Assembly (NCBI RefSeq): GCF_964213995.1 | Contig: NW_027590120.1 | Span: forward strand, 1,860,001-1,924,000 | Reading direction: 5' to 3' | Length of the DNA: 64,000 bases | Origin: Mustelus asterias | Taxonomy: Eukaryota | In this document: positions 553 to 42,351 of the stretch, one piece after another | Position numbering within the stretch: the first letter of the stretch is position 1 | Layout: each line of letters opens with the position of its first letter | The notes under the pieces: model-generated | Database searches by the model: none | The model's input: the letters and a program-made list of their open reading frames with translations, nothing else | What the model was told of the DNA's origin: nothing | Translations under genes and position numbers: made by a program

Positions 553-3500
553 CCCTGAGCCCGGACCCGTCGCCACGTCCTGAGCCCGGGCCCGTCGCCG
601 TGCCCTGAACCCGGGCCTGTCACCGCACCCTGAACCCAGGCCCTGAACCCAGGCCCATCACCGCGCCCTGAACCCAAGCCTGTCGCCGCGCCCTGAACCC
701 AAGCCTGTCGCCGCGCCCTGAACCCGGGCCTGTCACTGCGCCCTGAACCCAGGCCCCGAACCCGGGCCCATCACCGCGCCCTGAACCTGAGCCTGTTGCC
801 GCGCCCTGAACCCAGGCCTGTCACCGCGCCCTGAACCCGGGCCCATCACCGCGCCCTGAACCCAAGCCTGTCGCCGCGCCCTGAACCCAAGCCTGTCGCC
901 GCGCCCTGAACCCGGGCCTGTCACTGCGCCCTGAACCCAGGCCCCGAACCCGGGCCCATCACCGCGCCCTGAACCTGAGCCTGTTGCCGCGCCCTGAACC
1001 CAGGCCTGTCACCGCGCCCTGAACCCGAGCCTGTCACCGTGCCCCGAACCCGGGCCTGTCGCCGCGCCCTGAACCCGGGCCTGTCGCCGCGCCCTGAACC
1101 CGGGCCCATCACCGCGCCCTGAACCCGGGCCTGTCACCGCGCCCTGAACCCGGGCCTGTCACCGCGCCCTGAACCCGAGCCTGTCACCGTGCCCTGAACC
1201 CGGGCCTGTCGCCGCGCCCTGAACCCGGGCCCATCACCGCACCCTGAACCCGGGCCTGTCACCGCGCCCTGAACCCGGGCCTGTCACCGCGCCCTGAACC
1301 CGGGCCCATCACCGCGCCCTGAACCCGGGCCCATCACCGCGCCCTGAACCCGGGCCTGTCACCGCGCCCTGAACCCGGGCCTGTCACCGCGCCCTGAACC
1401 CGGGCCTGTCACCGCGCCCTGAACCCGGGCCCATCACCGCGCCCTGAACCCGGGCCCATCACCGCGCCCTGAACCCGGGCCTGTCACCGCGCCCTGAACC
1501 CGGGCCCGTCACCGCGCCCTGAACCCGGGCTGTCACCGCGCCCTGAACCTGAGCCTGTCGCCGCGCCCTGAACCTGAGCCTGTCGCCGCGCCCTGAACCC
1601 GGGCTGTCACCGCGCCCTGAACCTGAGCCTGTCGCCGCGCCCTGAACCCGGGCCCCGAACCTGGGCCCATCACCGTGCCCTGAACCCGAGCCTGTCGCCG
1701 CGCCCTGAACCCGAGCCTGTCGCCGCGCCCTGAACCCGAGCCTGTCGCCACGTCCTGAACCCGAGCCTGTCGCCCTGCCCTGAACCCGAGCCTGTCGCCG
1801 CGCCCTGAACCCGAGCCTGTCGCCCTGCCCTGAACCCGAGCCTGTCGCCGCACCCTGAACCCGAGCCTGTCGCCGCGCCCTGAACCCGAGCCTGTCGCCG
1901 CGCCCTGAACCCGGGCCTGTCGCCGCGTCCTGAACCCGGGCCTGTCGCCGTGCCCTGAACCCGGGCTCGTCGCCGCGCCCTGAACCCGAGCCTGTCGCCG
2001 CGCCCTGAACCCGAGCCTGTCGCCGTGCCCTGAACCCGGGCCTGTCGCCGCGTCCTGAACCCGGGCCCGTCACCGCGCCCTGAACCTGAGCCTGTTGCCG
2101 CGCCCTGAACCCAGGCCTGTCACCGCGCCCTGAACCCGGGCCCGTCACTGCGCCCTGAACCCGAGCCTGTCGCCGCGCCCTGAACCCGGGCCCATCACCG
2201 CACCCTGAACCCGGGCCTGTCGCCGCGCCCTGAACCCGGGCCCATCACCGCACCCTGAACCCGGGCCTGTCACCGCGCCCTGAACCCGGGCCTGTCACCG
2301 CGCCCTGAACCCGGGCCTGTCGCCGTGCCCTGAACCCGGGCTCGTCGCCGCGCCCTGAACCCGAGCCTGTCGCCGTGCCCTGAACCCGGGCCTGTCGCCG
2401 CGTCCTGAACCCGGGCCTGTCACCGCGCCCTGAACCCGGGCCCATCACCGCGCCCTGAACCCGGGCCTGTCACCGCGCCCTGAACCCGGGCCTGTCACCG
2501 CGCCCTGAACCCGGGCCCGTCACCGCGCCCTGAACCCGGGCCTGTCACCGCGCCCTGAACCTGAGCCTGTCGCCGCGCCCTGAACCCGGGCCTGTCACCG
2601 CGCCCTGAACCCGGGCCTGTCACCGCGCCCTGAACCCGGGCCCGTCACCGCGCCCTGAACCCGGGCCTGTCACCGCGCCCTGAACCTGAGCCTGTCGCCG
2701 CGCCCTGAACCCGGGCCCGTCACCGCGCCCTGAACCCGGGCCTGTCGCCGCGCCCTGAACCCGGGCCTGTTACCGCGCCCTGAACCCGGGCCCCGAACCT
2801 GGGCCCATCACCGTGCCCTGAACCTGAGCCTGTCGCCGCGCCCTGAACCCGAGCCTGTCGCCGCGCCCTGAACCCGAGCCTGTCGCCCTGCCCTGAACCC
2901 GAGCCTGTCGCCGCGCCCTGAACCCGAGCCTGTCGCCGCGCCCTGAACCCGGGCCTGTCGCCGCGTCCTGAACCCGGGCCTGTCGCCGCGCCCTGAACCC
3001 GGGCCTGTCGCCGCGTCCTGAACCCGGGCCCGTCACCGCGCCCTGAACCTGAGCCTGTCGCCGCGCCCTGAACCCGAGCCTGTCGCCGTGCCCTGAACCC
3101 GGGCCTGTCGCCGCGTCCTGAACCCGGGCCTGTCACCGCGCCCTGAACCCGGGCCCATCACCGCGCCCTGAACCCGGGCCTGTCACCGCGCCCTGAACCC
3201 GGGCCTGTCACCGCGCCCTGAACCCGGGCCTGTCACCGCGCCCTGAACCCGGGCCTGTCACCGCGCCCTGAACCTGAGCCTGTCGCCGCGCCCTGAACCC
3301 GGGCCTGTCACCGCGCCCTGAACCCGGGCCTGTCACCGCGCCCTGAACCCGGGCCCGTCACCGCGCCCTGAACCCGGGCCTGTCACCGCGCCCTGAACCT
3401 GAGCCTGTCGCCGCGCCCTGAACCCGGGCCCGTCACCGCGCCCTGAACCCGGGCCTGTTACCGCGCCCTGAACCCGGGCCCCGAACCTGGGCCCATCACC

Positions 3501-6500
3501 GTGCCCTGAACCTGAGCCTGTCGCCGCGCCCTGAACCCGAGCCTGTCGCCACGTCCTGAACCCGAGCCTGTCGCCCTGCCCTGAACCCGAGCCTGTCGCC
3601 GCGCCCTGAACCCGAGCCTGTCGCCCTGCCCTGAACCCGAGCCTGTCGCCGTGCCCTGAACCCGAGCCTGTCGCCGCGCCCTGAACCCGGGCCTGTCGCC
3701 GCGTCCTGAACCCGGGCCTGTCGCCGCGCCCTGAACCCGGGCCTGTCGCCGCGTCCTGAACCCGGGCCCGTCACCGCGCCCTGAACCTGAGCCTGTTGCC
3801 GCGCCCTGAACCCAGGCCTGTCACCGCGCCCTGAACCCGGGCCCATCACCGCGCCCTGAACCTGAGCCTGTTGCCGCGCCCTGAACCCGAGCCTGTCGCC
3901 GCGCCCTGAACCCGGGCCCATCACCGCACCCTGAACCCGGGCCTGTCGCCGCGCCCTGAACCCGGGCCCATCACCGCACCCTGAACCCGGGCCTGTCACC
4001 GCGCCCTGAACCCGGGCCTGTCACCGCGCCCTGAACCCGGGCCTGTCGCCGTGCCCTGAACCCGGGCTCGTCGCCGCGCCCTGAACCCGAGCCTGTCGCC
4101 GCGCCCTGAACCCGAGCCTGTCGCCGTGCCCTGAACCCGGGCCTGTCGCCGCGTCCTGAACCCGGGCCTGTCACCGCGCCCTGAACCCGGGCCCATCACC
4201 GCGCCCTGAACCCGGGCCTGTCACCGCGCCCTGAACCCGGGCCTGTCACCGCGCCCTGAACCCGGGCCCGTCACCGCGCCCTGAACCCGGGCCTGTCACC
4301 GCGCCCTGAACCTGAGCCTGTCGCCGCGCCCTGAACCCGGGCCTGTCACCGCGCCCTGAACCCGGGCCTGTCACCGCGCCCTGAACCCGGGCCCGTCACC
4401 GCGCCCTGAACCCGGGCCTGTCACCGCGCCCTGAACCTGAGCCTGTCGCCGCGCCCTGAACCCGGGCCCGTCACCGCGCCCTGAACCCGGGCCTGTTACC
4501 GCGCCCTGAACCCGGGCCCCGAACCTGGGCCCATCACCGTGCCCTGAACCTGAGCCTGTCGCCGCGCCCTGAACCCGAGCCTGTCGCCACGTCCTGAACC
4601 CGAGCCTGTCGCCCTGCCCTGAACCCGAGCCTGTCGCCGCGCCCTGAACCCGAGCCTGTCGCCGCGCCCTGAACCCGAGCCTGTCGCCCTGCCCTGAACC
4701 CGAGCCTGTCGCCGCGCCCTGAACCCGAGCCTGTCGCCGCGCCCTGAACCCGGGCCTGTCGCCGCGTCCTGAACCCGGGCCTGTCGCCGCGCCCTGAACC
4801 CGGGCTCGTCGCCGCGCCCTGAACCCGAGCCTGTCGCCGTGCCCTGAACCCGGGCCTGTCGCCGCGTCCTGAACCCCGGCCTGTCACCGCGCCCTGAACC
4901 CGAGCCTGTCGCCATGCCCTGAACCCGAGCCTGTCGCCGCGTCCTGAACCCGAGCCTGTCGCTGTGCCCTGAACCCGAGCCTGTCGCCGTGCCCTGAACC
5001 CGAGCCTGTCGCCGCGCCCTGAACCCGGGCCTGTCGCCGCGTCCTGAACCCGGGCCTGTCGCCGTGCCCTGAACCCGGGCTCGTCGCCGCGCCCTGAACC
5101 CGAGCCTGTCGCCGCGCCCTGAACCCGAGCCTGTCGCCGTGCCCTGAACCCGGGCCTGTCGCCGCGTCCTGAACCCCGGCCTGTCACCGCGCCCTGAACC
5201 CGAGCCTGTCGCCATGCCCTGAACCCGAGCCTGTCGCCGCGTCCTGAACCCGAGCCTGTCGCTGTGCCCTGAACCCGAGCCTGTCGCCGTGCCCTGAACC
5301 CGAGCCTGTCGCTGTGCCCTGAACCCGAGCCTGTCGCTGTGCCCTGAACCCGAGCCTGTCGCCGTGCCCTGAACCCGAGCCTGTCGCCGTGCCCTGAACC
5401 CGGGCCTGACACCGTGCCCTGAACCCGGGCCTGTCACCGCGCCCTGAACCTGGGCCCCGAACCCGGGTCCTGAACCCGGGCCCGTCACCGTGCCCTGAAC
5501 CCGAGCCTGTCACCGCGCCCTGAACCTGGGCCCGTCACCGCGCCCTGAACCTGGGCCCCGAACCCGGGTCCTGAACCCAGGTCCTGAACCCGGGCCCATC
5601 ACCGTGCCCTGAACCCGAGCCTGTCGCCGGGTCCTGAACCCGAGCCTGTCGCCGCGTCCTGAACCCGAGCCTGTCGCCGCGTCCTGAACCCGAGCCTGTC
5701 GCCGTGCCCTGAACCCGGGCCTGTCACCGCGCCCTGAACCTGGGCCCCGAACCCGGGTCCTGAACCCGGGCCCGTCACCGGGCCCTGAACCCGAGCCTGT
5801 CGCCGCGCCCTGAACCCGAGCCTGTCGCCGCGTCCTGAACCCGAGCCTGTCGCCGCGTCCTGAACCCGGGCCTGTCGCCGCGTCCTGAACCTGGGCCCCG
5901 AACCCGGGTCCTGAACCCGGGCCCGTCACCGTGCCCTGAACCCGGGCCCGTCACCGTGCCCTGAACCCGGGCCTGTCGCCGCACCCTGAACCTGGGCCCC
6001 GAACCCGGGTCCTGAACCCGGGCCCATCACCGTGCCCTGAACCCGAGCCTGTCGCCGCGCCCTGAACCCGAGCCTGTCGCTGTGCCCTGAACCCGGGCCT
6101 GTCACCGCGTCCTGAACCCGAGCCTGTCGCCGCGTCCTGAACCCGAGCCTGTCGCCGCGTCCTGAACCCGAGCCTGTCGCCGTGCCCTGAACCCGGGCCT
6201 GTCACCGCGCCCTGAACCTGGGCCCCGAACCCGGGTCCTGAACCCGGGCCCGTCACCGTGCCCTGAACCCGAGCCTGTCACCGCGTCCTGAACCCGGGCC
6301 CGTCACCGCGCCCTGAACCCGGGCCTGTCGCCGCGTCCTGAACCTGGGCCCCGAACCCGGGTCCTGAACCCGGGCCCATCACCGTGCCCTGAACCCGAGC
6401 CTGTCGCCACGTCCTGAACCCGAGCCTGTCGTCGCGCCCTGAACCCGAGCCTGTCGCTGTGCCCTGAACCCGGGCCTGTCACCGCGTCCTGAACCCGAGC

Positions 6501-6941
6501 CTGTCGCCGCGTCCTGAACCCGAGCCTGTCGCCGCGTCCTGAACCCGAGCCTGTCGCCGTGCCCTGAACCCGGGCCTGTCACCGCGCCCTGAACCTGGGC
6601 CCCGAACCCGGGTCCTGAACCCGGGCCCGTCACCGTGCCCTGAACCCGAGCCTGTCACCGCGTCCTGAACCCGGGCCCGTCACCGCGCCCTGAACCTGGG
6701 CCCCGAACCCGGGCCCGTCACCGTGCCCTGAACCCGAGCCTGTCGCCGCGTCCCGAACCCGGGCCTGTCACCGCGCCCTGAACCCGGGCCCCGAACCCGG
6801 GCCCGTCACCGTGCCCTGAACCTGGGCCCCGAACCCGGGTCCTGAACCCGGGCCCGTCACCGTGCCCTGAACCCGAGCCTGTCGCTGCGTCCTGAACCCG
6901 GGCCCGTCACCGTGCCCTGAACCTGAGCCTGTCACCGCGCC
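553..6941. repeat. GC/CpG-rich 25-bp tandem satellite, about 250 units (consensus CCCTGAACCCGGGCCTGTCACCGCG)
   Basis: Directly visible 25-bp period with occasional 13-bp half-units and higher-order blocks (188-bp offset near 733/921; 300-bp offset near 4861/5161). Confidence 0.98.
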
Positions 6942-8946: not shown

Positions 8947-9550
8947 TCAGAACCACATGTTATCGGCGAATCGGCTTAGCTCCAGCTCCTTTGTCGGGGG
9001 GCCTGCCCCCTCTGCCTGTACACTGGTGCCCGCTGTTACTGTTTTGCAACAGGCGTTCAATAATGCCATACAAACACAGCAAGTAATTACAAATATAATT
9101 AATACAATCAATCCATGCACCAGGTACGCACCCCACGACCCGAACCATTGCCCCAGCCATCCCAGAAGGTTATAATTGTGATATTGGTTCCTCTCAGCCT
9201 GTATTGTTTTCGCCACGTGTTTAATATGATCTGCTAAGTGAGTTATATTCTGCGAAGCATCGGAAATATACGTACACCATTCCAAGCCAACTATATTCCA
9301 CCTTGGGAGGCGAGCACATAATCGAGTGCCAATCGGTTCTGTAACGCCACAGTCTGAATAGCTACGACCACTGCTGATGTTTCAGAGACGGCCGTGCTCA
9401 CCTCCTCCAACCCGTCCTTAGTCGCATTAGCAATTCTCTCTAGGGTCGAGGCCATCCGTATAAGTTCTTGTGCTGCCTTTGCTGTCCCACAAAGTGGGTA
9501 GGCTATCATGATGAACTGTTCTGTCTCACAAATGGCTCGCTTCGCCCCAA
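8947..9550 (-). pseudogene. env: Endogenous retrovirus env, TM subunit only, frameshifted
   Basis: GAKR cleavage-like site, heptad region, immunosuppressive motif LQNRLALDYVLASQGG, broken CX6CC (frameshift at about 9290), hydrophobic membrane anchor and cytoplasmic tail. Confidence 0.9.
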
Positions 9551-10320
9551 GGGTGTTGGGGCCTCCAGAGGGTGTTTGTGAATCCTCCCCGCCCACCTCC
9601 CAGGGTTTCCTTCCTTCCCAGAGATCAGAATCCTCATTGATTTGAGGCCAAAGTGTAACCTCTTATTTATTGTCCCCCTCCCCCATCCTCTGATGTGAAC
9701 CATCCTCCAGTGGCTGAGCCAGGATGGGGCCGTTAACCTGGGCCTGTTCCCAGGAGGGAGGGAGGGAGAAGCCCCACAGCTGCAAACCAGGGAGCTGACA
9801 ATGATTCTGAAGGGTTTGCGGATCCACAAAGTGTTTCCAAATCCTCCCAGCCACCGCCTAACGCTGACTCCGCTTCTCCGGGACAAACAAGCGCCAAGGC
9901 CAGCAATGACACTGCGCATGCTCCACATCACAATGCCCGGGGACTGATTGACGGCAGCTCGGACCAATAGGAAAAGGGGGCGGGGGTGGAGAACCAAGCG
10001 GGAGTGGCTGGTCCTCCAACCAATCAGAGTGAATGAGGGGCGGGACCTGAAGCATGCGCAGTGCGGGTAATGGCGCGGACGGTCGGTTTTAATTTGGAAG
10101 CGAGATCAATACGAGGTAGAGGGCGGCGTTCGGGGAATGATAAATGTGGCGGGTGGGTGGAGAGGCTTTGTAAACATGTTGTTCAAACCCAAACCCCGGA
10201 AATGAACTTCCCGGTCCCCCCTTTGTACCAAATGGAGTGGCGGCTTGTAGTGTTAGACCCGGGCTGACTGCCGCCATAGAGGCTGCATGTGGGAGGCCGG
10301 CAGGGATTGTGATCGGAGAG
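9551..10320 (-). promoter_or_regulatory. ZNF-family promoter/5' module, paralog of 31990-32563
   Basis: Near-identical reverse complement of 32010-32563; CCAAT boxes, GC boxes, TGCGCATGC. Confidence 0.7.
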
Positions 10321-10328
10321 TGAAGCCC

Positions 10329-11110
10329 TGACGTCACAATGGAATGGGTGGGGGTGTGACGTCACAATGGAATGGGTGAGGGTGTGACGTCACAATGGAA
10401 TGGGCGATGGTGTGACGTCACAATGGAATGGGCGATAGTGTGACGTCACAATGGAATGGGCGATAGTGTGACGTCACAATGGAATGGGCGATAGTGTGAC
10501 GTCACAATGGAATGGGCGATAGTGTGACGTCACAATGGAATGGGCGATAGTGTGACGTCACAATGGAATGGGCGATGGTGTGACGTCACAATGGAATGGG
10601 CGAGGGTGGGACGTCACAATGGAATGGGCGAGGGTGGGACGTCACAATGGAATGGGCGAGGGTGGGACATCACAATGGAATGGGCGAGGGTGGGACGTCA
10701 CAATGGAATGGGCGAGGGTGGGACGTCACAATGGAATGGGCGAGGGTGGGACGTCACAATGGAATGGGCGAGGGTGGGACGTCACAATGGAATGGGCGAG
10801 GGTGGGACGTCACAATGGAATGGGCGAGGGTGGGACGTCACAATGGAATGGGCGAGGGTGGGACGTCACAATGGAATGGGCGAGGGTGGGACGTCACAAT
10901 GGAATGGGCGAGGGTGGGACGTCACAATGGAATGGGCGAGGGTGGGACATCACAATGGAATGGGCGAGGGTGGGACGTCACAATGGAATGGGTGAGGGTG
11001 GGACGTCACAATGGAATGGGAGAGGGTGTGACGTCACAATGGAAATGGGAGAGGGTGTGACGTCACAATGGAATGGGCGATAGTGTGACGTCACAATGGA
11101 ATGGGTGAGA
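10329..11110. repeat. 28-bp minisatellite, about 28 units (TGACGTCACAATGGAATGGGCGAGGGTG)
   Basis: Directly visible; 13 units keep the perfect TGACGTCA palindrome. Confidence 0.97.
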
Positions 11111-12276: not shown

Positions 12277-13125
12277 TGATTGACAGATCCATGCTCACTG
12301 CTTCCTGCCCTGGACGCAGAGAGCTGAAAATTTCCATGCAGGCTGCCAGACAGATAAATGTCTACATTACTGGAGTAAAAATGTGTGGAATATACAGACC
12401 AAATTCACTTCATTCCCTACAGTTGCTGCAAGTCCCCAATTTCCCCCAGAATGAGAAAAGAAATGGAAAGGGGGAAACATTGATTTCCTCCCAGATGTTG
12501 TCCAGAGGAGGAAGTTTCACTCTGAACCTCATTGGACAACGTCCGCATTGTGACGGCACAATGGAGCCCTGCCTGAATCAGCCAATAGGAATCACTCTGC
12601 TCCGCGGTGATGTCTCCGGGTTCCAGTCCGCAGGCCCGGGCGCGCGGACCCAGGAGCCCCGCCCCCACCCATTGTTCCCCTCCCCCTGCACCTCCTCGAG
12701 CCAAGATTTCCAGGCAACCGGCTGACGGCTCCGGACAGAGCGAGAAGCCGCTCGGTGATCTCCCCCTCCCGCCGGCCCTGGACTGTAAATGTGCGGGGGA
12801 AGGGAAGCTGCGCATGTGCGGGGGAGAGAGGAAGCTGTGCATGTGCAGGGGAGAGCCCACCCTCTGATCTTCATGCTGAGGTGTTGACCAATGGGAAGAG
12901 TTGGAGGACCGGAAGGACTCTGGTCCTCCAGCCAATCAGAGCGTGGGCTTTGTGTGAATGAAGATTGATCTTCAGACAGACTCAAACCTCCTCCTGTCTC
13001 AAACATCGGAGTTTGTTTCTGTAGTGAAGTGGCTTCACGTTCGCCTGAAACGCAGAAGTCCCCGGGTCAGAACCGGGCAGAAACTTGGACTTGTTTCTCT
13101 GATACATCTGTGAGTAACACACTTT
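12277..13125. promoter_or_regulatory. Probable bidirectional ZNF promoter with a leftward 5' exon module and a rightward first exon ending in GTGAGT
   Basis: 12277-12610 is the reverse-complement paralog of 41010-41348; GC box, TGCGCATGTGCG, and GTCCTCCAGCCAATCAGAG shared with 10011-10030; donor GTGAGT at 13110. Confidence 0.6.
13015..13085 (+). pseudogene. tRNA-Val-derived sequence with altered loops
   Basis: GTTTCTGTAGTGAAGTGGCTTCACGTTCGCCTGAAACGCAGAAGTCCCCGGGTCAGAACCGGGCAGAAAC aligns end to end with vertebrate tRNA-Val; T-loop/B-box is broken. Confidence 0.8.
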
Positions 13126-13659
13126 CTTTTTCCACCACAGTTTGTTCACAGGTTTTTGGCTTCCTGCAGGGAGGAAGGGAAGGGGGAAGGAAGGTGGGAG
13201 GTGAACTGTTGCCTGCCTGCCTGCCGCCTGGCCTGCCTGCCTCTGGAGGGTGTGCTCTCCCCGGAGGGAGGGAGGAAGAGAGGACGAGGAGTGACTGGAG
13301 AGGAGAGGGGGGCAAAGTCATTTCAGACCGTCTAATTTTTCCATCTGCAGTGGGGGGTGGGGTGAAGATAACACAGACTTGAAATGTTTGCGCCCAACAG
13401 CGCCCCAAGGCCCAAGTCCCCCACCCACTGCTGCTGACCCCAACACCGGCACCCCCTCCCCTCCTGACTGGGGCACCGGCCCCCCTCCGTGCCTTGTCAC
13501 TAGTCTTCCTCCTGCTCCTCTGACCTCCTCTCTCACTCCAGGGAGAGAGCACCTAGACCCCCATCCACCTACCCCACCCTCCCTTACTTTTCCCTCCTCT
13601 TATACACCCTGCCGTACATCTGGGCAGTCTCAGGATGAGTGTAGCACTCCCTTGAAAGG

Positions 13660-14493
13660 ATGGCAACATCGCCAGCGTCGCCGGTGGCAGGGCCTTCTCG
13701 GCCCACCTATGCGGGCGTGGCGGCTGCCAGAGCCCCCGCCGCTCCCAAGGCCCTGCCGCCATTCTCCCTAATCACGCGGCAGCTCGGGGTGAAGTGCTAC
13801 GCCCACCCCGACATGTCTATCGAGGCCTGCGTTAAGGCAATGGCTGGGGTTGTCGGCCCCTCAGCCATTGTCGCGGCCTCAAAGATGTACGGCCGGGCCG
13901 TATTCTTTTTGAAGGCCGAGCGGGCGGTCCACCTCACCCTGGAGAGGGGGCTCACTGTGGGCGGGACGTTCCTGGCGGTGGACCCATTGGAGGCCACTGC
14001 CCATAATATCATAATATCAAACATCCCGCCCTTCCTACCGAGTGAGCTCCTCCTCCCCCACCTCCATCTACTGGGGGAGGTCAGGTCCGGGGTGCAGCCG
14101 ATCCCGCTCGGCCTTAGGGACCCCTCCCTGCACCACATATACTCCTTCCGGCGCCAGGTTTTTGTCCGCCTGGCCCGGGAGGAGGAACTGGAGGGAGGTT
14201 TCAGTATCCCCCATGAGGGGACCACGTATCGGGTCTTTTGGTCCGCGGACGGTGTGCGGTGCCATGCCTGTAAGGAGGCGGGGCACGTGCGGAAAAACTG
14301 CCCCGTCTCCAAGGCCGCCGACCGCCAACCCAAGGCAGCCGCAGCTGGCACCGCAGCCCCCTCTCCCCCCAAACCAGTACCATCTGCCCCCCCGCGAGGG
14401 GAGGCCACGCCGGCAGCAGCTGTCACCTCAGCTGCCGGCGGGGGGGGGGAGCGGAGCCTCCGCGTGGCCAAAAGGCCCAGAAGGGCGCAATAA
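13660..14493 (+). CDS. Tx1 ORF1 protein (RRM-like regions plus CCHC knuckle), probably cut short at a homopolymer frameshift
   Basis: VGPSAIVAASKMYGRAVFFL, IISNIPPFL, SFRRQVF and CHACKEAGHVRKNCP are Tx1 ORF1/ZCCHC3-like motifs. Confidence 0.85.
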   Translation: MATSPASPVAGPSRPTYAGVAAARAPAAPKALPPFSLITRQLGVKCYAHPDMSIEACVKAMAGVVGPSAIVAASKMYGRAVFFLKAERAVHLTLERGLTVGGTFLAVDPLEATAHNIIISNIPPFLPSELLLPHLHLLGEVRSGVQPIPLGLRDPSLHHIYSFRRQVFVRLAREEELEGGFSIPHEGTTYRVFWSADGVRCHACKEAGHVRKNCPVSKAADRQPKAAAAGTAAPSPPKPVPSAPPRGEATPAAAVTSAAGGGGERSLRVAKRPRRAQ

Positions 14494-15110
14494 AAAAAGA
14501 AGGGGGGTACCGGAATCCCGGCCCCCAAGAAAGACACCCCAACCACCCCGGCAGCCGGCTCGGGGACTGCCTCAGTCTCCACCTGCGCCCCCCCCCCCCC
14601 ACCACCATCTGCCGGGCCCGTGGGCTCTCCGGGGCCAAGTGCTGGGTCCGGCGCTGCGGATGCCCAGGATCATGGGCCCGAGCATGGGGGGGGTTAGCGA
14701 CCCCGAGCCGGCAAAACTGGCGACACCGCCACCTCGGGGGGACGTGATGGGGGGTCAGGGGGGGTGCGGCAAGGCGAAGAGGGGCCTCACTTGCCCGAGA
14801 GCAGGTTAACAAAAAGAGGCGGGGCCCCTCGGGCACCGTGGAGTTCGAGGTCTGCATGCCCCTCCCCCCTTGTGAGTCATCTCCTGCCGTGCCCCCACCT
14901 GTCTTTGTGCCTTGTCCCCAGAAAAAAGGGGGCAAGGCACCCTATAAATCGAAACGTGTGCTGCCTCAGTCCCCCGGCGAGGAGTCCCCGGGGCTGGGTG
15001 GCAGCGGGGCCCCCACGGCTCTGTTCCACCCGGTCGATTACAACCCGGACTTCTTCTTTAGTATGTCGGGGGACTGGGGCAACACCCCAATGTTCGTGTC
15101 CCTATCATCA

Positions 15111-17279
15111 GGTGGTCCACGGGAGGAGGCCAAGTGGGTGACGGCCAGGAAGTAAAGCTCGGGTGATTGAGAGCACCCCGGTGGATGTGCCCCTACACAA
15201 CAAGTACTCCTGCCTGAGTACTGTTGGGAGGGACAGCCCACCTGGGGGAAGCAGCAGTGGCCGGGCCTCCGGAGTGGAGTCCGGCCCTGTAACTCAGAGG
15301 GCTAAAGAGGGGAAGGCGGTATTAATCGGGGACTCGGCAGTCAGGGGGACGGACAGGCGATTTTGCGGAGGCAGGTGGGAGTCTCGCATGGTGGTCTGCC
15401 TCCCTGGGGCTGGGATTCAGGATGTCGCTGGGCGAGTCCCAGAAATCCTGAGGGGGGAGGGAGAGGAGCCGGAGGTAGCGGTACATATTGGTACCGCTGA
15501 TGTGGGAAGGAAGGGGGAAGGGGTCATGAAAAAAGAGTATAGGGAATTAGGGAGACAGCTGAGGAGGAGGAAAGCAAAGGTAGTAATCTCAGGATTGCTG
15601 CCTGTGCCATGGGAAGGCGAGGACAGGAATGGAATGAGGTGGAGGATGAATATGTGGCTGAGGGACTGGTGCAGGGGACAGGGATTCAGGTTCCTGGACC
15701 ATTGGGACCTCTTCAGGGGCAGGTGTGGGCTGCACACAAAAAATGGGTGGCACTTGAATCCCAGGGGGACCAATATCCTGGCAGGAAGGTTGGCTAAGGC
15801 TACTGGGGAGAGTTTAAACTCAATAGGTTGGGGGGAGGGGATCAGAGTGAGGAAGTTAGCTCACAAACAGAGAAGGGTTATAGGCAGTGCAAGAGGATGG
15901 ATGGACAGGGAATAGAGAAGGGGAGAGCTCAGACCAAAGGATTGAGATGTGTTTACTTCAATGCCAGGAGTATAGTGAATAAAGGGGATGAGCTCAGAGC
16001 GTGGATCGATGCCTGGAAGTATGATGTGGTGGCCATTACGGAGACTTGGATGTCTCAGGGACAGGACTGGATACTCCAGGTGCCGGGATTCAGATGTTTC
16101 AGGAAGGACAGGGAGGGAGGCAAGAGAGGGGGTGGAGTGGCACTGCTGATCAGGGATAGTGTCACAGCTTTAGATAAGGTGTATGCTGTGGAGGGATTGT
16201 CCACCGAGTCTCTGTGGGTGGAGGTACAGAGTGCAAAGGGGCCGGTCACTTTGCTGGGAGTTTTCTATAGGCCGCCTAATAGTAACAGGGAGGTGGAGGA
16301 GCAGATAGGGTAACAGATCCTGGAGAGATGCAGTAATAGCAGAGTTGTTGTGATGGGAGACTTTAATTTCCCAAACATAGATTGGAATATCCCGAGGGTA
16401 AGGGGATTGGATGGGGAAGAGTTCATTAGGTGTTCAGGAGGGTTTCCTGACACAGCATGTGGACAAGCCTACTAGAGGAGAGGCTGTACTTGATCTGATA
16501 CTGACCAATGAACCTGGACAGGTGTCAGATCTCTGTGGGAGAGCATCTTGGGGATAGCGATCATAACTCTATCTCCTTTAGGCTTGCATTAGAAAAAGAG
16601 GGGATCAGGCAAGCTAGGAAAGTGTTTATATGGAGTAAGGGGAAATATGAAGACATTAGACAGCAAATTAGAGGAGTAAATTGGAAGGAGGTATTCTCAG
16701 GGAAATGTACTGAAGAGAGGTGGCAGTTTTTCAAGGAATGTCTGTCTAGAGTTCTACAGAACAACGTTCCGAGCAGACAGGGAGGTGTTGGTCGGTTAAA
16801 GGAACCATGGTGCACGAAAGCTGTGCGGGACCTAGTCGAGAAGAAAAGGAAAGCGTACAAAAGACTCAGAGCTTGGCGAAGATAGGGATTTAGAAGAGTA
16901 TACGACTTGTAGGAAGGGACTAAAGAAGGAAATTAGGAGAGCCAGAAGGGGTCACGAGAAGGCCCTGGCAGGTAGGATTAAGGAGAACCCTAAGGCGTTC
17001 TATAAATATGTGAAGAGTAAAAGGATGAGACGTGATGGAATAGGGCCTATTAAAGGTGAAGGCGGGAAAATCTGTACAGAACCAGTAGAAATGGCAGAGG
17101 TGCTCAATGAGTATTTTGCCTCGGTTTTCAGAGAAGGACCTGGGTGGATGTACTGCGGGCTTGTGGTGGACTGAAAAGATTGAGTATGTGGGCTTTAAGA
17201 AAGAGGTTGTGCTGGAATCTTTGAATGGCATCAAGACAGATAAGTCGCTGGGTCCGGATGGGATGTACCCCAGGTTCCT
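15111..17279 (+). mobile_element. CR1 LINE copy a, first segment (ORF1 SGNH esterase, ORF2 APE endonuclease), defective
   Basis: LIGDS..VRG, CLPGA, HIGT esterase motifs; YFNARS, VAITETW, YRPP endonuclease motifs; breaks at GMYPRFL. Confidence 0.9.
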
Positions 17280-19345
17280 CGGCCTGGGGAGGTTTGTTGC
17301 TGGCTTTAAAAAGGGATTGCCTTGGAGGTTTCAGCCTCTGTTCCACAGAGAGAGCTGAGGGTAAGAGAGAGTGTTTTTTAGTGGAGATTTATTTATTTTT
17401 CAGTTAATTTTGTGCGTAAAATCTGAGGTTTTTTTTTTCAAAACCGGAAGTAGGCCTGGGGAGGTTTGTTGCTGGCTTTAAAAGGCAGGCAGCACTTACG
17501 AGCGGGCAGTGGAGCAAGTGAAGTAGAGTGGCAGCTGTCAGGGCTTTGGCTCACAGGGCTTGTGGGAAGCAGAGTGAGAGCTGTCAGGGCTTTGGCTCAG
17601 AGGGCTTAGGTGGTAAGGGTGAGGCAGGGCAAGTTATTTTTATCCAAACCTATATAGGAAAAGGGTAACTATGAATGATAGGCCAGTTCTGTGCTTCCAG
17701 TGTGGGATGTGGGAGTTCCTGGAAACACCTAGCCTCCCGGGAGGACCACATTTGCGCCAGGTGCGTGGAACTGCAGCTCCTGAGGGACCGTGTCACAGAA
17801 CTGGAGCTGCAGATTGCTGACCTTGGTCAAGTCAGGGAGAATGAGAATAATTGACACGAGTTATAGGAAACTAGTTACACCGGGGCATCGGGAGGAAGAC
17901 ACGTGGGTCACAGTTAGGAGGAGTAAAGGTCAGAAGGGTAATGTATCAGAGAGTACTCCAGTGGCTGTCTCTCATAATAGGAAGGGCTCGGCGACAGGTG
18001 TGAGAGGGGAGGGGAGGGGAGTGAGCAATTAGTGGAGGGGTCACCTGTGGTTGTCCCACTCCAAAACAAGTATATTGTTTTGGATAGTGTGGAGGAGGAT
18101 GACTCTCCAGGGGTAAGCCACAGTGACCAGGTCACTGGCACAGAGTCAGGCTCTGTGGCCCGGAAAGGAAAGAGAGGGGTTAGGAGACAAATAGTGGTGG
18201 GGGATGCGTCGGTTAGAGGCACGGACAGGCGATTCTGTGGGTGCAAACAGGACTCCAGGATGGTAGTCTGCCTACCTGGTGCTGGGGTACTGGATGTCTC
18301 CAAGCGGATAGGAGGCATCTTAAAAAGCGGAAGATAAAGAAACGGATGTCATTGTACACATTGGTGCAAATGACGTAGATAGGAAGAGCAGGGGGATCCT
18401 ACGAGAGCAATTCAGGGAGTTGGGAAATAGACTAAAAAGTAGGGCCTCCAGGGTGGCCATCTCTGGGCTGCTCCCAATGCCTCGTGCCAGTGAGGCTAAG
18501 AATAGGGAGTTAGTACAATTGAATGCTTGGCTAAAGGACTGGTCCAGGAGGGAGGGCTTCATTTTCCTAGTTCAATGGGAAGTTTTCAGGAGAGGATGGC
18601 ACCTGTACAAGGAGGACGGGTCACAACTAAGTTGGAAGGGCACGAATATCCTGGCTGGGAGTTTTGCTAGTGCAGTTCGGGGGGGTTTAAACTAGTATGG
18701 CAGGGGGGTGGGGATCAAAATATTAGGTCTACAAGTGTAGAGGCTGGAGACGAGATTGGGGCTGGGACAAGGCTGGCAAAGAAGAAGTGCACTCTGGGGG
18801 AGGATGACCTCACTGGGCCTGGAGGTCTGGAGTGCTTATACTTCAACGCAAGGAGCGTAGCAGGTAAGACAGACGAACTGAGGGCCTTAATGCTCACGAG
18901 GAATTTGGATGTGGTTGCAGTGACAGAGACTTGGTTGAAAGAGGGACAGGACTGGCAGCTGAACATTCCGGGGTACAAGTGTTTTAGGTGAGACAGAGGA
19001 GGGGCCAAAAGAGGTGGGGGAGTAGCAGTATTAGTTGGAGAGCATATTACAGCGGTGCAGAGGGAGGACAATTCAGAGGGGTTGTGTAACAAGTCACTCT
19101 GGGTGGAACTTAGAAACAGGAAGGGTGCAGTCACTGTGTTGGGAGTATACTACAGGCCCCCCAACAGCCCAAGGGAAGTGGAAGAACGGATATGTCAGGA
19201 GATACTGGATAGGTGCAGGAAAAATAGGGTGGTTGTAGTGGGAGACTTCAATTTCCCTGGTATAAACTGGAAATCGCTGAGAGCAGGGACTCTGAATGGG
19301 GAGGAATTTGTGAAATGCGTACAGGAGAGTTCTTTGGAACAATAT
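17280..19345 (+). mobile_element. CR1 LINE copy b, 5' portion (5'UTR, ORF1, start of ORF2)
   Basis: CFQCGMW zinc motif, esterase and endonuclease motifs; closely similar to copy c from about 17500 onward. Confidence 0.9.
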
Positions 19346-22300
19346 GGCAGGGGGGTGGGGATCGACCTCTTTGTTTGACTGGGGGAGAGAGTCTTAGCAG
19401 GAGTGCTGAGAGTAAGCAAAGAAGTGATTTAATTATTCATTTATGGGTATTCCTAGTATATTTTGCGTGCTTTTTTCAGGGTTTTGAATTGAGGAAGTGA
19501 GGTCAGCTGAAGGGGATTCTGGGAGGTTGAGTCTTAGTATAAAAGGCAGTTACCTGGGGGGTTCGCCGGGAGCATAAAAAGCCGGCTGCACTATACAGCG
19601 GGCAGCGTCGGGAGCGGGCAGTGGAGTGAGTGGGTAGCAGAGTGTGAACTATAAGGGTTTTGGCTCACAGGGCTTAGGCTGAAAGGGCGAGGCAAGGCTA
19701 GTTATTTTTTACCCAACCCTATAAAGGATAAGGGCAGGTATGAGTGATTGGCCAGTTCAGTGCTTCCGATGTGGGATGTGGGAGTTCCTGCAAACACCTA
19801 GCTTCCCAGAGGTTCACATATGTGCCAGGTGCGTGGAACTGCAGCTCTTGAGGGACCGTGTCATGGAACTGGAGCTGCAGATCGCTGACCTTAGTCTAGT
19901 CAGGGAAAATGGGAGAAAAATTGACAGGAGTTATAGGCAACTAGTTACACCGGGGCATCAGGAGAATGACACGTGGGTCACAGTTAGGAGGAGTAAAGGG
20001 CAGAAGGGTAAAGTACAAGGGAGGACTCCAGTGGTGGTCTCTCAAAATAGGAAGGGCTTGGTGACAGGTGTGAGAGGGGAGGGGAGTGAACAGTTAGAGG
20101 AGGGGTCACCTGTGGTTGTCCCACTCCAAAACAGGTATATTGTTTTAGATAGTGTGGAGGAGTGTGCCTCTCCAGGGGTAAGCCACAGTGACCAGGTCAC
20201 TGGCACACAGTCAGGCTCTGTGGCCCAGAAAGGGAAGAGAGGGGTTAGGAGAGCGATAGTGGTGGGGGATGCATCAGTTAGAGGCAGACAGGTGATTCTG
20301 TGGGGGCGAATGGGACTCCAGGATGGTAGTCTGCCTACCTGGTGCTGGGGTCACGGATGTCTCCGAGCGGATAGCAGGCATATTAAAAGGGGAAGATAAA
20401 GAAACGGATGTCATTATACACATTGGTGGAAATGACGTAGATAGGAAGAGTAGGGGGGTCCTAAGAGAGCAATTCAGGGAGTTGGGAAATAGGTTAAAAA
20501 GTAGGGTCACTAGGGTGGCAATCTCTGGGCTGCTCCCAATGCCTCGTGCCAGTGAGGCTAAGAATAGGGAGTTGGTACAAATGAATGCCTGGCTAAAGGA
20601 CTGGTCCAGGAGGGAGGGCTTCATTTTCCTAGATCAATGGGAGGTTTTCAGGAGAGGATGGCACCTGTACAAGAGGGAGGGGTCACAACTAAGTTGGAAG
20701 GGCACAAATATCCTGGCTGGGAGCTTTGCTAGTGCAGTTCGGGGGGGTTTAAACTAGTATGGCAGGGGGGTGGGGATCAAACTATTAGGTCTATAAGTGT
20801 GGAGGCTGGGGACGAGCTTGGGGCTGGGACAAGGCTGGCAAAGAAGAAGAGCACTCTGGGGGAGGACGACCTCACTGAGCCTGGAGGTCTGGAGTGCTTA
20901 TACTTCAATGCAAGGAGCGTAGCAGGTAAGACAGACGAACTTGGGGCCTTAATGCGCACGAGGAATTTGGATGTGGTTGCGGTGACAGAGACTTGGTTGA
21001 AAGAGGGACAGGACTGGCAGCTGAATATTCCAGGGTACAAGTGTTTTAGGTGAGACAGAGGAGGGGCCAAAAGAGGTGGGGGAGTAGCGGTATTAGTTGG
21101 AGAGCATATTACAGCGGTGCAGAGGGAGGACAATTCAGAGGGGTCGTGTAACGAGTCACTCTGGGTGGAGCTTAGAAACAGGAAAGGCGCAGTCACTATG
21201 TTGGGGGTGTACTACAGGCCCCCCAACAGCCCAAGGGAAGTGGAAGAATGGATATGTCAGGAGATACTGGATAGGTGCAGGAAAAATAGGGTTGTTGTAG
21301 TGGGAGACTTCAATTTCCCTGGTATGGACTGGAAATTGCTGAGGGCAGGTACTCTGGATGGGGAGGAATTTGTAAAATGTGTACTGGAGGGTTCGTTGGA
21401 ACAATATGTAGACAGCCCGACGAGAGAGGGGGCTATACTGGACCTGGTACTGGGGAATGAGCCCGGTCAGGTCTTCAAAGTTTTGGTAGGGGAACATGTG
21501 GCAAATAGTGACCACAATTCTGTTAGCTTTAGGATAGTGATGGAAAAGGATGAGTGGTGTCCCAAGGGTAAGGTGTTGGATTGGGGGAAGGCTAACTTTA
21601 GTGGGATTATGCAGAAATTGGCAGCTGTTGATTGGGAGAGGCTGTTTGAGGATAAATCCACATCTGGCATGTGGGAGTCTTTTAAGGAACAGTTGTTAGG
21701 GCCACAGGACAGGCATGTGCCTGTAAAAAAGGATTGGATTCGAGAACTGTGGATAACCAGGGAAATTGAGGGACTGGTCAAAAAGAAAAGAGGCGCATGT
21801 TAGGTCCAGGCAGCTAAAAACGGAGGGAGCTCTGGAGGAGTACAAAGAAAGTAGGAAAGAACTCAAACAGGGAATTAGAAGGGCAAAAAGGGGTCACGAA
21901 ATGTCCTTGGCAGACAGGATTAAGGAGAATCCAAAGGCATTTTATTCATACGTTAGGAACAAAAGGGTAGTCAGGGGAAAAAAAAAAATCAGACCTCAGG
22001 GACAAAAGTGGGGAATTATGCTTGGAGCCCAAAGTAGTAGGGGAGATCCTAAATGAATACTTTGCGTCGGTATTCACAATGGAGAGGGATGTGTTGACTG
22101 GGAGTGTCTCAGAGGGGAGTGTTGAACCGTTGGAGAAAATCTCCATTACAAGGGAGGAAGTGTTAGGTTTGTTAGAGAATATAAAGACTGACAAATCCCC
22201 AGGGCCTGATGGAATCTATCCAAGGCTGCTCAGGGAGACGAGAGATGAAATCGCTGGGCCTCTGACGCAAATCTTTGTCTCGTCACTGGGCACAGGCGAG

Positions 22301-23690
22301 GTCCCAGAGGATTGGAGGATAGCTAATGTGGTCCCGTTAGTTAACCCGGGTAATTATAGGCCGGTGAGCTTGACGTCCGTGGTGGGGAAGTTGTTGGAGA
22401 AGATTCTTAGAGATAGGATGTATGTGCATTTAGAAAGGAATAAACTCATTAACGATAGTCAGCATGGTTTTGAGAGGAGGTCATGCCTCACTAACCTGGT
22501 GGAGTTTTTTGAAGAAGTGACCAGAATGGTTGACGAGGGAAGGGCCGTGGATGCCATCTATATGGACTTTAATAAAGCATTTGACAAAGTCCCTCATGGT
22601 AGGTTGGTGAAAAAGGTTGGATCTCATGGGATAAAGGGGGAGGTGGCTAGATGGGTGGAGAACTGGCTTGGTCACAGAAGACAGAGGGTGGTAGTGGAAG
22701 GGTCTTTTTCCGGCTGGAGGCCTGTGACTAGTGGTGTTCCGCAGGGCTCTGTATTGGGACCTCTGCTGTTTGTGATTTATATAAACGATCTGGAAGAAGG
22801 TGTAACTAGGGTGATCAGTAAGTTTGTGGACGACACAAAATTGGCAGGACTTGCAGATAGTGAGGAGCATTGTCAGAGGCTACAGAAGGATATAGATAGG
22901 CTGGAAATTTGGGCAAAGAAATGGCAGATGGAGTTCAATCCTGATGAATGCGAAGTGATGCATTTTGGTAGAAATAATGTAAGGAGGAGCTATACGATAA
23001 ATGGCAGAACCATAAAGGGTGTAGATATGCAGAGGGACCTGGGTGTGCAAGTCCACAGATCCTTGAAGGTGACGTCACTGGTGGAGAAGGTGGTGAAGGA
23101 GGCATATGGCAAGTTGGGGTCTGATGTTGCAGATGTATAGAACGTTGGTTCGGCTGCATTTGGAATAATGTGTCCAGTTCTGGTCGCCACACTACCAGAA
23201 GGACATGGAGGCTTTGGAGAGAGCACAGAGGAGGTTTACCAGGATGTTGCTTGGTATGGAGGGGCTTAGTTCTGAGGAGAGATTGGGTAAACTGGGGTTG
23301 TTCTCCCTGGAAAGATGGAGGATGAGGGGAGACTTAATAGAGGTGTATAACATTATGAAAAAGGCATAGATAGGGTAAACGCTGGGAAGCTTTTCCCCAG
23401 GTCGGTGGTGACGTTCACGAGGGGTCATAGGTTCAAGGTGAAGGGGGGGGGGGCGGTTTAACACAGATATCAGAAGGACATATTTTACAGAGGGTGGTGG
23501 GGGCCTGGAATGCACTGCTAGGCAAGGTGGTGGAGGCAGACACACTGGTAACGTTTAAGACTTATCTAGATAGCCACATGAACGGAGTGGGAATGGAGGG
23601 ATACAAAAGAATGGTCTAGTTTGGACCAGGGAGCGGCACGGGCTTGGGGGGCCGAAGGGCCTGTTCTTGTGCTGTATTGTTCTTTGTTCT
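19346..23690 (+). mobile_element. CR1 LINE copy c, essentially full length with frameshifts and stops
   Basis: ORF1 19740-20757; ORF2 with NYRPVSLTS, QHGF, GVPQGSVLGP, KFVDD; 3' tail TGTATTGTTCTTTGTTCT. Confidence 0.92.
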
Positions 23691-23841
23691 GTGGGAGACG
23701 AGGGAAGAGATTGCAGAGCCTCTGGCGATGATCTTTGCGTCGTCGATGGAGACGGGAGAGGTGCCGGAGGATTGCAGATGTGGTTCCTATTTTCAAGGGG
23801 AATAGGGATAGCCCAGCTAATTACCGACCGGTGAGTCTAAC
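23691..23841 (+). mobile_element. CR1 copy a, continuation
   Basis: Resumes at WETREEIAEPL, directly continuing MYPRFL from 17279. Confidence 0.8.
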
Positions 23842-23892
23842 CTGGCTGTTCACTGGAAAACTCATTCGGTTGTGTGTGTGTCTGTGCTTTTC

Positions 23893-24586
23893 CGCGGGGC
23901 CGGCCATCCGGCGCGCGGCCAAAGCCGTCCCAGACCTTAGGACGGACGTGCTCGGCCCCGAAACTGCACGCAAACTCGAGGCGGCGCAGGCGTGCGGTGG
24001 GATCCCGCCCGAGCGTTGGCCGGCCTTGTTGCCGCCGGGTGGCGGAGGTCCCCGCTGGAGGTCCCTCTACGGAGGGATCTCCCCCAATTACGTCGGGGAC
24101 CTGGGGTGGAGGGTGATGCATGCAGCAGTTCCGCACAACCGTAGGATTCACTGGTTCACAGGCTCCGAAGACTGCCCTTTCTGTGGCCTTGTGGAGTCCG
24201 TGGACCATGTCTATGTTGTGTGTCTTAGGCTGCACTCCCTTTATGTTTTCCTGAAGAACCTTTTATTGATGTTCTGTTTGCACTTCAGTCCCACGCTCCT
24301 GATCTACGGACACCCGGTGCGGAGAGGGGAGGGTCAGGATGGCGACCTCCTCGTGAACCTGCTCCTGGGCCTGGCGAAACGCGCCATTTACCGGTCCAGG
24401 CAGCGGGCGATCGAGGGGGCCGTCCATCCTGACTGTCTGCCCCTCTACCGCGGCTACGTTCGCGGCCAGGTGTCCCTGGAGAGGAAGCATGCGGTGTCCA
24501 CGGGCAAGGTTGACACCTTCCACGTCCATTGGGCACCGCAGGGGTTGGGGTGCGTTATTGACCCTAATAATCACATTTTAATTTGA
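23893..24586 (+). pseudogene. Tx1 ORF2 C-terminal region (zf-RVT)
   Basis: WRSLY..GDLGWRVMH..CPFCGLVESVDHVYVVC..LLLGLAKRAIY. Confidence 0.85.
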
Positions 24587-24735
24587 TGTTTAAGTTTCCT
24601 TTGTACTTTGATTTCTGTTCGGGCTGTTCCCCTTCCTTCTGGGGAGCTGCCCCTTTTACTTTGTCCTGATTTAACCCGAGTTTGTTTATTTGGTTTGACC
24701 TAAAAAGAGGCCAACATCTGTGAGTAACACACTTT

Positions 24736-25238
24736 AGAGCTTGCTTGCTGGAGACGCCCGTTTTCTATCGTTTCTGCCAATTTGTTGGCTTCCTGCAAGA
24801 AGGAGGGAGGAAGGTGAGCTATCGCCTGCCTGCCGTCTGCTGGAGGGTGCTCTCTCCCTGGAGGGAGAGAGGGAAAGAGGACACGAAGACACTTTCTTTG
24901 TTTACTTTTTTCCACCTACGGGAGGGAAGAGTGCACAGCCTACTCATAAACATCAGGGGACTGAGTGGGGCTGATGCCCTCATCAGAAGGTCGGTGCCTG
25001 AAAGGGAGGTTTGCGGGGGGGAGAAAATTTAGACTGTTTTCCATCTGCAGTGGGTGGGTGGGGGGGGGTGAAGACACCCTGGACTTAGTTTGCGCCCAAG
25101 AGAGCTGGAAGAGTAAAGTCCCCCCACCCACTGCTGCTGCCCCCAACACCGACACCCACCCCCCCCTCCCCCCTCCTTCCTCCTGACTGGGGCACCGGCC
25201 CTCCTCAGTGCCCTGTCCCTCCTCAGTGCCCTGTCCCT
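24736..25238 (+). mobile_element. Second Tx1 element (B), 5'UTR only
   Basis: Colinear similarity to 13150-13500 (TTGGCTTCCTGCA, CTGGAGGGTG, TTTTCCATCTGCAGTGGG, CCTCCTGACTGGGGCACCGGCC). Confidence 0.75.
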
Positions 25239-41009: not shown

Positions 41010-41548
41010 AGTCATCGCGGAAGAGACTGATTAATATTGGCTGATTCAGGCAGGGCTCCATTGTGATGTCACAATGTGGAAGTTGTCCATTGAGCTTCAG
41101 AGTGAAACTCCCTCCTCTGGACAACATCTGGGAGGAAATCAATGTTTCCCCCTTTCCATTTCTTTTCTCATTCTGGGGGAAATTGGGGACTTGCAGCAAC
41201 TGAAGGGAAAGGAAGTGAATTTGGTCTGTACATTCCACACATTTTTACTCCAGTAATGTAGACATTTATCTGTCTGGCAGCCTGCATGGAAATTTTCAGC
41301 TCCCTCTGTGCCCAGGACAGGAAGCAGTGAGCGTGGATCTGTCAATCAGCCTCAATCAGCACCTTCAGGAGAATTGGGAGGGTGAATATTAGATACAGCA
41401 GAGTGAGAATGGAGGGAGAGTGTGTGGGATGGAGATTTACAGCTTTGGGGAGTGAGAGAGGAACGAATGTTCCATAGAAACTAGAATTGTCTGTTCTGAA
41501 TTTCTATCCTGTACTGACACTGATGACTTTTGTAAATTCCTTTTGCAG
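41010..41548 (+). promoter_or_regulatory. ZNF 5' module: CCAAT and CRE-like palindrome, exon ending GGGAGG|GTGAAT, intron with TACTGAC and TTTTGCAG
   Basis: Paralogous to 12277-12610, 39878-40053 and 49465-49685. Confidence 0.65.
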
Positions 41549-41889
41549 GATATCAGAAGGTGAAGATTTAAAAACGATTATCAAACCAAACTTCACATCA
41601 AAATCTAACATAGTCACTCAGTTCATTGGGACCTGAATATCATCGACCTTTGAATCTAGAATGGAAATGTTTCTCTGCTCTGTCTGCTTCAGGAGATTTT
41701 AAACATCAGTGTGACTGGAAAAGCACCGAGACACACACACACTGAAACATGCACACACCTGAGTGACTGTGGAAAGAACTTTAACCAGTTAAACAGCCTG
41801 AAAATACATTGCAGCAGAGAGACCGCACCCATGTTATGTTGTAACTGAACTGATTGTCAAGCCTGGAGAGTCACAAGGACACCCGCACC

Positions 41890-42250
41890 ATGGAGAAATT
41901 GTGTAAATGTGGGGACTGTGGGAAAGGATTCAGGTTCCCATCTGCACTGGAAACTCATCAGCGCAGTCACACTGGAGAGAGACATTCACCTGCTGTGTGT
42001 GTGGGAAGGGATTCACTCAGTTATCCCATTTACAAACACACCAGGGAGTTCACACCAGGGAGAGGCCATTCACCTGCTCTATGTGTGGGAAGGGATTCAC
42101 TCAGTTGCTCAACCTGTTGAGCCACAAGGTCACTCACACCCAAGACAGACCCTTTAAATGCTCTGACTGTGGGAGTGGCTTCATAAGCTCTCGGGAATTG
42201 ATGGTCCACCAGCGCATTCACACTGACGAGAGACCGTTTAGCTGCTCTCA
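41890..42250 (+). pseudogene. C2H2 zinc-finger pseudogene
   Basis: MEKL start, frameshift near 41982, truncated after about 4 fingers. Confidence 0.8.
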
Positions 42251-42351
42251 GGGGTTTACAGGGTTGATTACAGGGGTTGGATTCTTTCTCTCTCAATCTT
42301 TCTCTTTCCCACCCTGCTCTCCCCCCCCCTGCTCTTTCCCCACCCCCACCC

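Follow-up and report, generated by a model that had tools for sequence, protein, structure and literature searches.

The window analysed here (64,000 nt of contig NW_027590120.1, positions 1,860,001-1,924,000, in the 3.68 Gb Mustelus asterias assembly GCF_964213995.1) holds several C2H2 zinc-finger (ZNF) arrays on both strands and, behind a ZNF promoter-like region, the remains of a retrotransposon. We consider it probable (roughly 0.72) that this is a broken copy of a Tx1-clade long interspersed nuclear element (LINE), whose family repeatedly inserts into the non-coding 5′ exon of a C2H2 gene family of several hundred members, 8 nt upstream of a splice donor that is in use there, keeps most of its long copies in the clusters of these genes, and likely needs the ZNF promoter for its transcription. 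The original prediction of a site-specific element with the ZNF splice donor as multicopy target held as a strong preference, with many independent events and stacking at the site, and failed as strict specificity. Coordinates such as 13104-13125 count from window position 1, C-numbers denote contigs and L-numbers sampled loci.

Insertion at the ZNF splice donor and elsewhere

The 3′ junction of the insertions is fixed, with the element ending in AAAAGAGG directly before CCAACATCT-GT, 8 nt ahead of the donor in the ZNF 5′ untranslated region (5′ UTR), and empty sites read CCTCCTGTC(G/T)CCAACATCT followed by GTGAGT. The core of the site, CAACATCT followed by GTGAGTAA(A/C)AC, occurs 712 times, with clusters on C12, C23, C71, C75 and smaller contigs. 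Empty sites turned out to be ZNF donors in use, as had been expected of them: in contigs of related organisms, presumed to be RNA and aligned to the empty gene L123, run X3 contained a canonical joint of 398 nt linking this donor with the ZNF exon; at the donor, loose ends in 5 contigs of X3 and 4 of X8 read on into the start of that exon, and X5 showed a spliced junction. A second donor, 233 nt downstream of the target donor, was used in X1. No RNA record was listed for the window stretch itself. Fingers on the same strand were found within 5.3 kb of 25/30 empty and 20/30 filled sites, and the CCAAT and ETS motifs, together with a head-to-head layout, suggest that the donor belongs to the first exon of ZNF genes.

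Among 49 intact core sites on C12 and C23, a hand tally gave 20 occupied by this family, 2 with a second type of 3′ end, 25 empty and 2 unclassed, an occupancy of 22/49 (~45%). The second 3′ end (…GTAATAAACAAAAAGAAA; AAAAGAAA) is unrelated to that of this family and joins the same target base in 6 of 100 listed sites (L134, L139, L155, L166, L169 and L176, on C12 and C23), with a 14-15 bp duplication in L155.

Genome-wide, 1407 marked 3′ ends were found (220 of CCTT type and 1187 of CCTA type), and 121 of these run into V-CAACATCTG (8.6%), so that the 3′ flanks of most copies are heterogeneous. The 100 listed on-target ends comprise 49 CCTT and 51 CCTA ends; scaled from these, the on-target share is ~27% of the CCTT type (~59/220) and ~5% of the CCTA type (~62/1187). 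The first 100 listed ends (C1-C4) include 99 without the target site. Under the rule of PMC4494074 (>20% of flanks of one type), the shares are 8.6% for all ends, ~27% for CCTT, ~5% for CCTA and 30/30 for tRNA-headed copies. Strict specificity as in R2 or Keno, where essentially all 3′ junctions lie at one site, was not found in this family; its relation to the target is a strong preference.

When the end marker was shortened, which picks up tiny stubs as well, 430 ends were detected at AAAGAGG-V-CAACATCTG (control 0), and only 3 (control 1) at CCAAT-box-type motifs, which likewise start with CCAA; general promoter accessibility is thus unsupported as the cause. The sampled off-target copies are mostly short stubs at VCA(A): 47 off-target flanks read V, C (45), A (46) and A (33), and are near random thereafter. 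This motif is part of the target DNA, since the left duplication copies of off-target insertions also show it. By hand calculation, the base frequencies of off-target flanks would produce ~0.4 matches to the long site by chance, versus the 121 observed. Off-target flanks differ by end type, with 9/9 of the CCTT type starting with CCA and 23/38 of the CCTA type with G. A further, short-A end type is represented by 7 off-target copies, the last letter of the search pattern having excluded on-target ones.

The 5′ end of the element and the window locus

The features of the locus are as follows.

12277..12610, minus strand: ZNF 5′ module facing the opposite way (head-to-head partner), 93% identical to 41012-41348, with GG at the donor position
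12700..13011, plus strand: region resembling a ZNF promoter, and the non-coding 5′ exon as far as the insertion site, with CCAAT at 12888 and 12932 and CCGGAAG at 12909
13000..13011, plus strand: left copy of the true target-site duplication, decayed, CAAACATCGGAG
13012..13103, plus strand: element head, with a 3-nt leader, a tRNA-Val-derived body (13015-13085) and a T-rich trailer
13104..13125, plus strand: left 22-mer, the captured end of the target exon and its donor (GT at 13110), within the element leader
13126..13659, plus strand: remainder of the Tx1 5′ UTR, with TGCC repeats
13660..15102, plus strand: remnant of Tx1 open reading frame (ORF) 1, frame broken at ~14490, 83% to the full-length copy L171
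15103..23892, plus strand: nested CR1-type LINE pieces, with SGNH esterase (15142-15912), APE (21054-21800) and reverse transcriptase (RT, 21971-23137)
23893..24710, plus strand: C-terminus of Tx1 ORF2 (stop 24586) and 3′ UTR ending in AAAAAGAGG, without poly(A)
24711..24724, plus strand: right copy of the target duplication, CCAACATCT followed by GTGAG, across the exon-intron boundary
24714..25238, plus strand: right 22-mer and leader/5′ UTR of another Tx1 copy, which is truncated and lacks its own tRNA head
41012..42221, plus strand: empty comparison locus, with a 5′ module of a second type that has GG at 41130, an acceptor at 41549 and a broken ZNF exon

The tRNA-like sequence at 13015-13085 (Rfam RF00005, 41.6 bits), overlooked in the original prediction, and the 22-mer following it are collinear with the leaders of other full-length copies, in which the target is followed by a short leader, the tRNA body, a T-rich trailer, a GTGAGTAA-type donor copy and the 5′ UTR; this puts the start of the element at ~13012 and the left 22-mer within it. 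The 22-bp direct repeat proposed to bound the element is exact and cannot be extended on either side, but its left copy lies inside the leader, and this collinearity rules it out as a target-site duplication; rather than being distinct from the terminus of the element, the 22-mer belongs to its own 5′ leader. The true duplication of the window copy is formed by 13000-13011 and 24711-24724 (CCAACATCTGTGAG). In L263 and L276 the head is preceded by a clean left copy of 14 bp that reads CCAACATCTGTGAG or nearly so, and duplications in other copies measure 8-15 bp on target and 10-17 bp off target. The 22-mer has 40 exact copies in the genome, a number that includes duplicates of the window locus (reversed control, 0).

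A search with 13015-13130 returned 201 candidates and 40 scored matches, the best 30 of which were read. All 30 tRNA-headed loci lie at the target site, by eye 27 after a ZNF 5′ module and 3 after an earlier Tx1 3′ end at the same site; they collapse to ~18 distinct junctions, and ORF1 follows within 1.6 kb in 26. ARAGORN called Val(GAC) in 9 heads, Phe in 7 (all duplicates of the window locus) and His in 1, with no call in 13; GAC is, to our knowledge, not a usual vertebrate Val anticodon. A tRNA target of the Dewa type is ruled out: the duplication encloses the tRNA, which is carried along by the element, and empty sites have no tRNA. The donor-like octamer is kept in 27/30 heads. In the other three, L278-L280, which represent one event, the leader lacks exactly the stretch from donor to CAG, as a copy of spliced RNA would; this is suggestive only, and L278-L280 may possibly derive from such a copy.

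Other copies have no head and open with the donor copy itself (L163, L169, L180), and the right-hand element of the window resembles one of these. These copies bear on an alternative that we regard as unlikely, although it is the best placed of those considered, namely that the 22-mer is a real duplication, created when the left element inserted into the donor copy in the leader of the right element, whose tRNA head would now stand on the left. That reading would account for the single tRNA head shared by two elements and for the way in which the right 22-mer runs into a standard leader. On the left side, however, tRNA, donor copy and 5′ UTR are collinear as in the single copies L262 and L263, and the headless copies show that elements beginning at the site exist. 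Even if this alternative were right, the result for the family would not change.

The stretch between the 22-mers is not one Tx1 element as had been assumed: its 11.6 kb include ~8.8 kb of nested pieces, which we take to be CR1-type from their esterase ORF1, and which stand in place of ~3.6 kb of Tx1, including the Tx1 endonuclease and RT. This block carries a 1.8-kb internal duplication. Pfam returned no match for ORF1 or the ORF2 C-terminus. The predicted second, diverged Tx1 5′ UTR is present directly after the right 22-mer, stacked on the first element, and breaks off at ~25238. The left flank was correctly recognised as a ZNF 5′ module with CCAAT motifs, and the sequence of 12700..13011 is also found ahead of empty donors; the module chosen for comparison, 41091-41145, reads GG and not GT at 41130. 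From the window site, the first ZNF exon on the same strand is reached only at 33216, past one on the opposite strand.

Duplicates of the window locus have 7 near-identical left junctions, the right junction and the DNA downstream of it are common to at least 11 loci (82-100% identity), and the nine closest 3′ pieces form one starred clade in the tree of 3′ pieces, and the window locus is thus one old event that was later duplicated. In its paralogues, the match after the right junction is 21, 22 or 25 bp long.

Several other features of the window were recorded. ZNF 5′ modules often lie head to head round one promoter, a few hundred bases apart (window 12277-13011; L156, L175, L187, L271, L276), and two broken ZNF exons lie tail to tail at 41902-42565 with little in between. 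A minisatellite of ~6.4 kb with a GC- and CpG-rich 25-bp unit occupies 450-6940, and a 28-bp tandem array of 27.8 copies (10330-11109), with GACGTCA (resembling a cAMP response element) in each, adjoins a promoter-like region. At 8947-9560 on the minus strand is a broken remnant with an immunosuppressive-domain-like motif, presumably from a retroviral env gene.

Independence of insertions, copy length and effect on ZNF genes

Junctions were compared in 60 of the 100 loci listed, in contig order, from the 430 on-target places; L160 was dropped as a chance match. The remaining 59 loci have 47 distinct junctions, with no two alike among the 28 on C12 and C23. At the target, mini-copies are stacked in L104 and L107, and ORF1 markers are spaced ~7.1-7.4 kb apart, which suggests tandem stacks of putative full-length copies. 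At L209 (C71:14938282-14948015), ~17 tandem copies of a 257-bp unit from the 3′ end of the element lie at the target site. Across a tree built from 3′ pieces, 39 on target and 28 off target, the label switches 13 times, and a single on-target clade was rejected (approximately unbiased test, p=0.004; 375 columns of the 3′ end); the tree is star-like, with 10/64 branches starred. Off-target copies are ~95% identical among themselves and none of 100 loci held an intact ORF2, hence the family is not very young.

On-target and off-target copies differ strongly in length. Of the on-target loci that retain 22 nt or more of the element, classed by hand, 21/41 carry 1.5 kb or more, versus 2/40 off-target loci (p=3e-6), and ORF1 is carried by 12/41 versus 0/40 (p=2e-4). 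The ORF1-start marker occurs 210 times in the genome; by position only, 94 of 100 listed markers are in ZNF-cluster contigs or regions or at known modules, and C1-C3 contain 113 3′ ends versus 1 ORF1 marker. Many off-target copies (L055, L061, L075, L079, L222, L234, L240, L242, L248) are truncated immediately ahead of a G-rich run, ~400 nt from the 3′ end; a stall of reverse transcription and a short derivative are candidate readings.

We consider it improbable that integration is instead nearly unspecific, at VCA, with a pile-up made of a handful of insertions that segmental duplication or gene conversion multiplied, and with long copies surviving only in redundant clusters. Duplicates are clear, with 18/59 loci falling in 6 groups in addition to the copied window locus, and off-target ends predominate; yet the many distinct junctions, with differing truncations and stacked mini-copies, the rejected on-target clade, the near-absence of hits at CCAAT-type motifs and the unrelated 3′ end AAAAGAAA at the same base speak against it.

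Several observations nevertheless weigh against the preference for the ZNF donor and its long copies as we read them. Off-target ends make up 1286 of the 1407 marked 3′ ends (91%), and the end type of the window copy itself, CCTA, is the one with only ~62/1187 on target. Segmental duplication inflates the counts, at least 11 copies of the window's right junction going back to one event. As many as 6 of the 100 ORF1 markers listed fall outside known clusters, and the one marker on C1-C3 is 5.9 kb upstream of an off-target 3′ end, therefore long off-target copies exist; their selective loss could be an alternative source of the length contrast. The X runs that indicate use of the donor are contigs of other, related organisms and presumed to be RNA, and the exact 398-nt joint rests on one contig with 20 letters on its short side. 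Finally, the acceptor-like CAG of the leader is often CGG (12/24 heads in which the acceptor was located), which makes a conserved intron in the leader doubtful.

Frames with at least four fingers follow 9/30 filled and 15/30 empty sites (p=0.19), and this demonstrates neither of the proposed roles of the target, as a safe haven or as a set of repressors to be disabled. In a post hoc split by length, which omits two insertions of undefined length, intact frames follow 3/16 long and 6/12 short insertions, and the comparison of long insertions with empty sites (3/16 vs 15/30) gives p=0.058; one of the 16 long loci could not be scored, as another element follows, and the empty sites were chosen by a stricter pattern. 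These counts fit a tolerated cost and establish neither harmlessness nor counter-defence. Since long insertions are probably still costly, the ZNF family is better described as a tolerated redundant target than as a clean safe haven. That ZNF genes are targeted because disabling them relieves repression of the element appears a shade less probable still than unspecific integration: the deficit after long insertions speaks for it, but the overall comparison and the short insertions do not, some long copies precede intact frames (L286, L300), the limits of the long-locus comparison apply, and binding of ZNF proteins to the element is purely hypothetical. Least credible of all is a strictly site-specific element with a site-regenerating 22-bp duplication, for which the exact repeat, the single base struck hundreds of times and the CCTT share can be cited, but which is contradicted by the table of flanks, by the collinear left 22-mer and by duplications elsewhere that never exceed 17 bp, and is tenable only for a separate young family outside the 3′-end pattern searched.

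Family identity, proposed mechanism and known systems

Domains and similarity to Tx1L place the family, from its sequence, in the Tx1 clade of retrotransposons lacking long terminal repeats (LTRs). The copy L177 has PF03372 (APE) at the N-terminus of ORF2 and PF00078 (RT), both of which are lost from the window copy. The family ORF2 is 48% identical to YTX2_XENLA (Tx1L) over the first 500 aa (E 4e-140; rank 3 of 215 hits), with the best identity, 62%, to a Heterodontus sequence, and the ORF2 C-terminus of the window copy matches YTX2_XENLA at 42% over 177 aa. Two ORFs, 5′ truncation and target-site duplications are all present in the family.

From established knowledge of APE LINEs, integration would proceed by target-primed reverse transcription with the APE/RT protein. 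Full integration may be favoured where the long site matches, and three to four matching bases would yield truncated stubs; those at VCA(A) could reflect slack of the endonuclease or pairing by a read-through RNA tail. Exon and donor sequence form part of the element, and its long copies lie in forward orientation behind the promoter; transcription therefore probably starts from the ZNF promoter. The donor would be retained upstream of ORF1, in the left duplication or in the leader copy, and the host could therefore splice past most of the element. More tentatively, and with the odds somewhat against it, we propose that this is a vertebrate LINE, autonomous, with the 5′ exon of a protein-coding gene family as its main productive niche. 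It would be transcribed from the ZNF promoter, would have fixed a pre-tRNA-Val and a host donor as a leader that lets the host splice past it, and would support passengers at the same base, while nearly all that it leaves elsewhere would be dead stubs.

The targets of sequence-specific LINEs reported in the papers considered are RNA genes, spliced-leader exons, repeats and other transposons (PMC4494074, PMC3706591, PMC4640811, PMC6719617), and the splice donor of a protein-coding family would be a new class. As ~45% of the intact sites in two clusters are filled, turnover of ZNF genes in this lineage may be shaped by the element. The contrast within one family between long copies on target and short stubs off target makes it possible to test how much of LINE specificity lies in the first nick and how much in later pairing and 5′ joining, and a tRNA-derived head on an ORF1-ORF2 LINE bears on the origin of the heads of short interspersed nuclear elements (SINEs). 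No ZNF-exon-targeting or tRNA-headed Tx1 element was found in literature titles and abstracts; subscription journals, Repbase and the supplements of PMC4494074 could hold one.

Tx1L of Xenopus laevis similarly has an ORF2 with APE and RT and a repeated target (PMC4494074, PMC6719617), but that target is the DNA transposon Tx1D, whereas here it is a protein-coding splice donor and the leader bears a tRNA-Val head and a donor copy. Tx1-Mar and SINEU of crocodilians likewise prefer their targets without being strictly specific, share a site with non-coding passengers and show small-RNA sequence added at 5′ ends, with transcription from flanking DNA proposed (PMC4494074). They differ in targeting Mariner, Harbinger and LTR elements and microsatellites (PMC4494074), and the small-RNA heads of SINEU sit on non-autonomous SINEs, not on an ORF1-ORF2 LINE as here. 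Keno (U2 snRNA), Kibi and Koshi (microsatellites), all of the Tx1 clade (PMC4494074), and the tRNA-Leu-spacer-specific Dewa (PMC3706591) are likewise fish elements with specific multicopy targets; in the family described here the tRNA travels with the element instead of being its target, which is an exon of an RNA polymerase II gene. NeSL and Utopia share a multicopy exon target (spliced-leader exons, U2 genes), and certain Utopia families likewise have off-target insertions at short motifs resembling the site, but these elements are of the restriction-like endonuclease type, another endonuclease class, and target RNA genes (PMC4640811). Tf1, P, Mutator and mPing also prefer regions upstream of protein-coding genes (PMC6719617); their preference is regional and covers unrelated genes, whereas the present family strikes one base in one gene family and spares CCAAT-type motifs.

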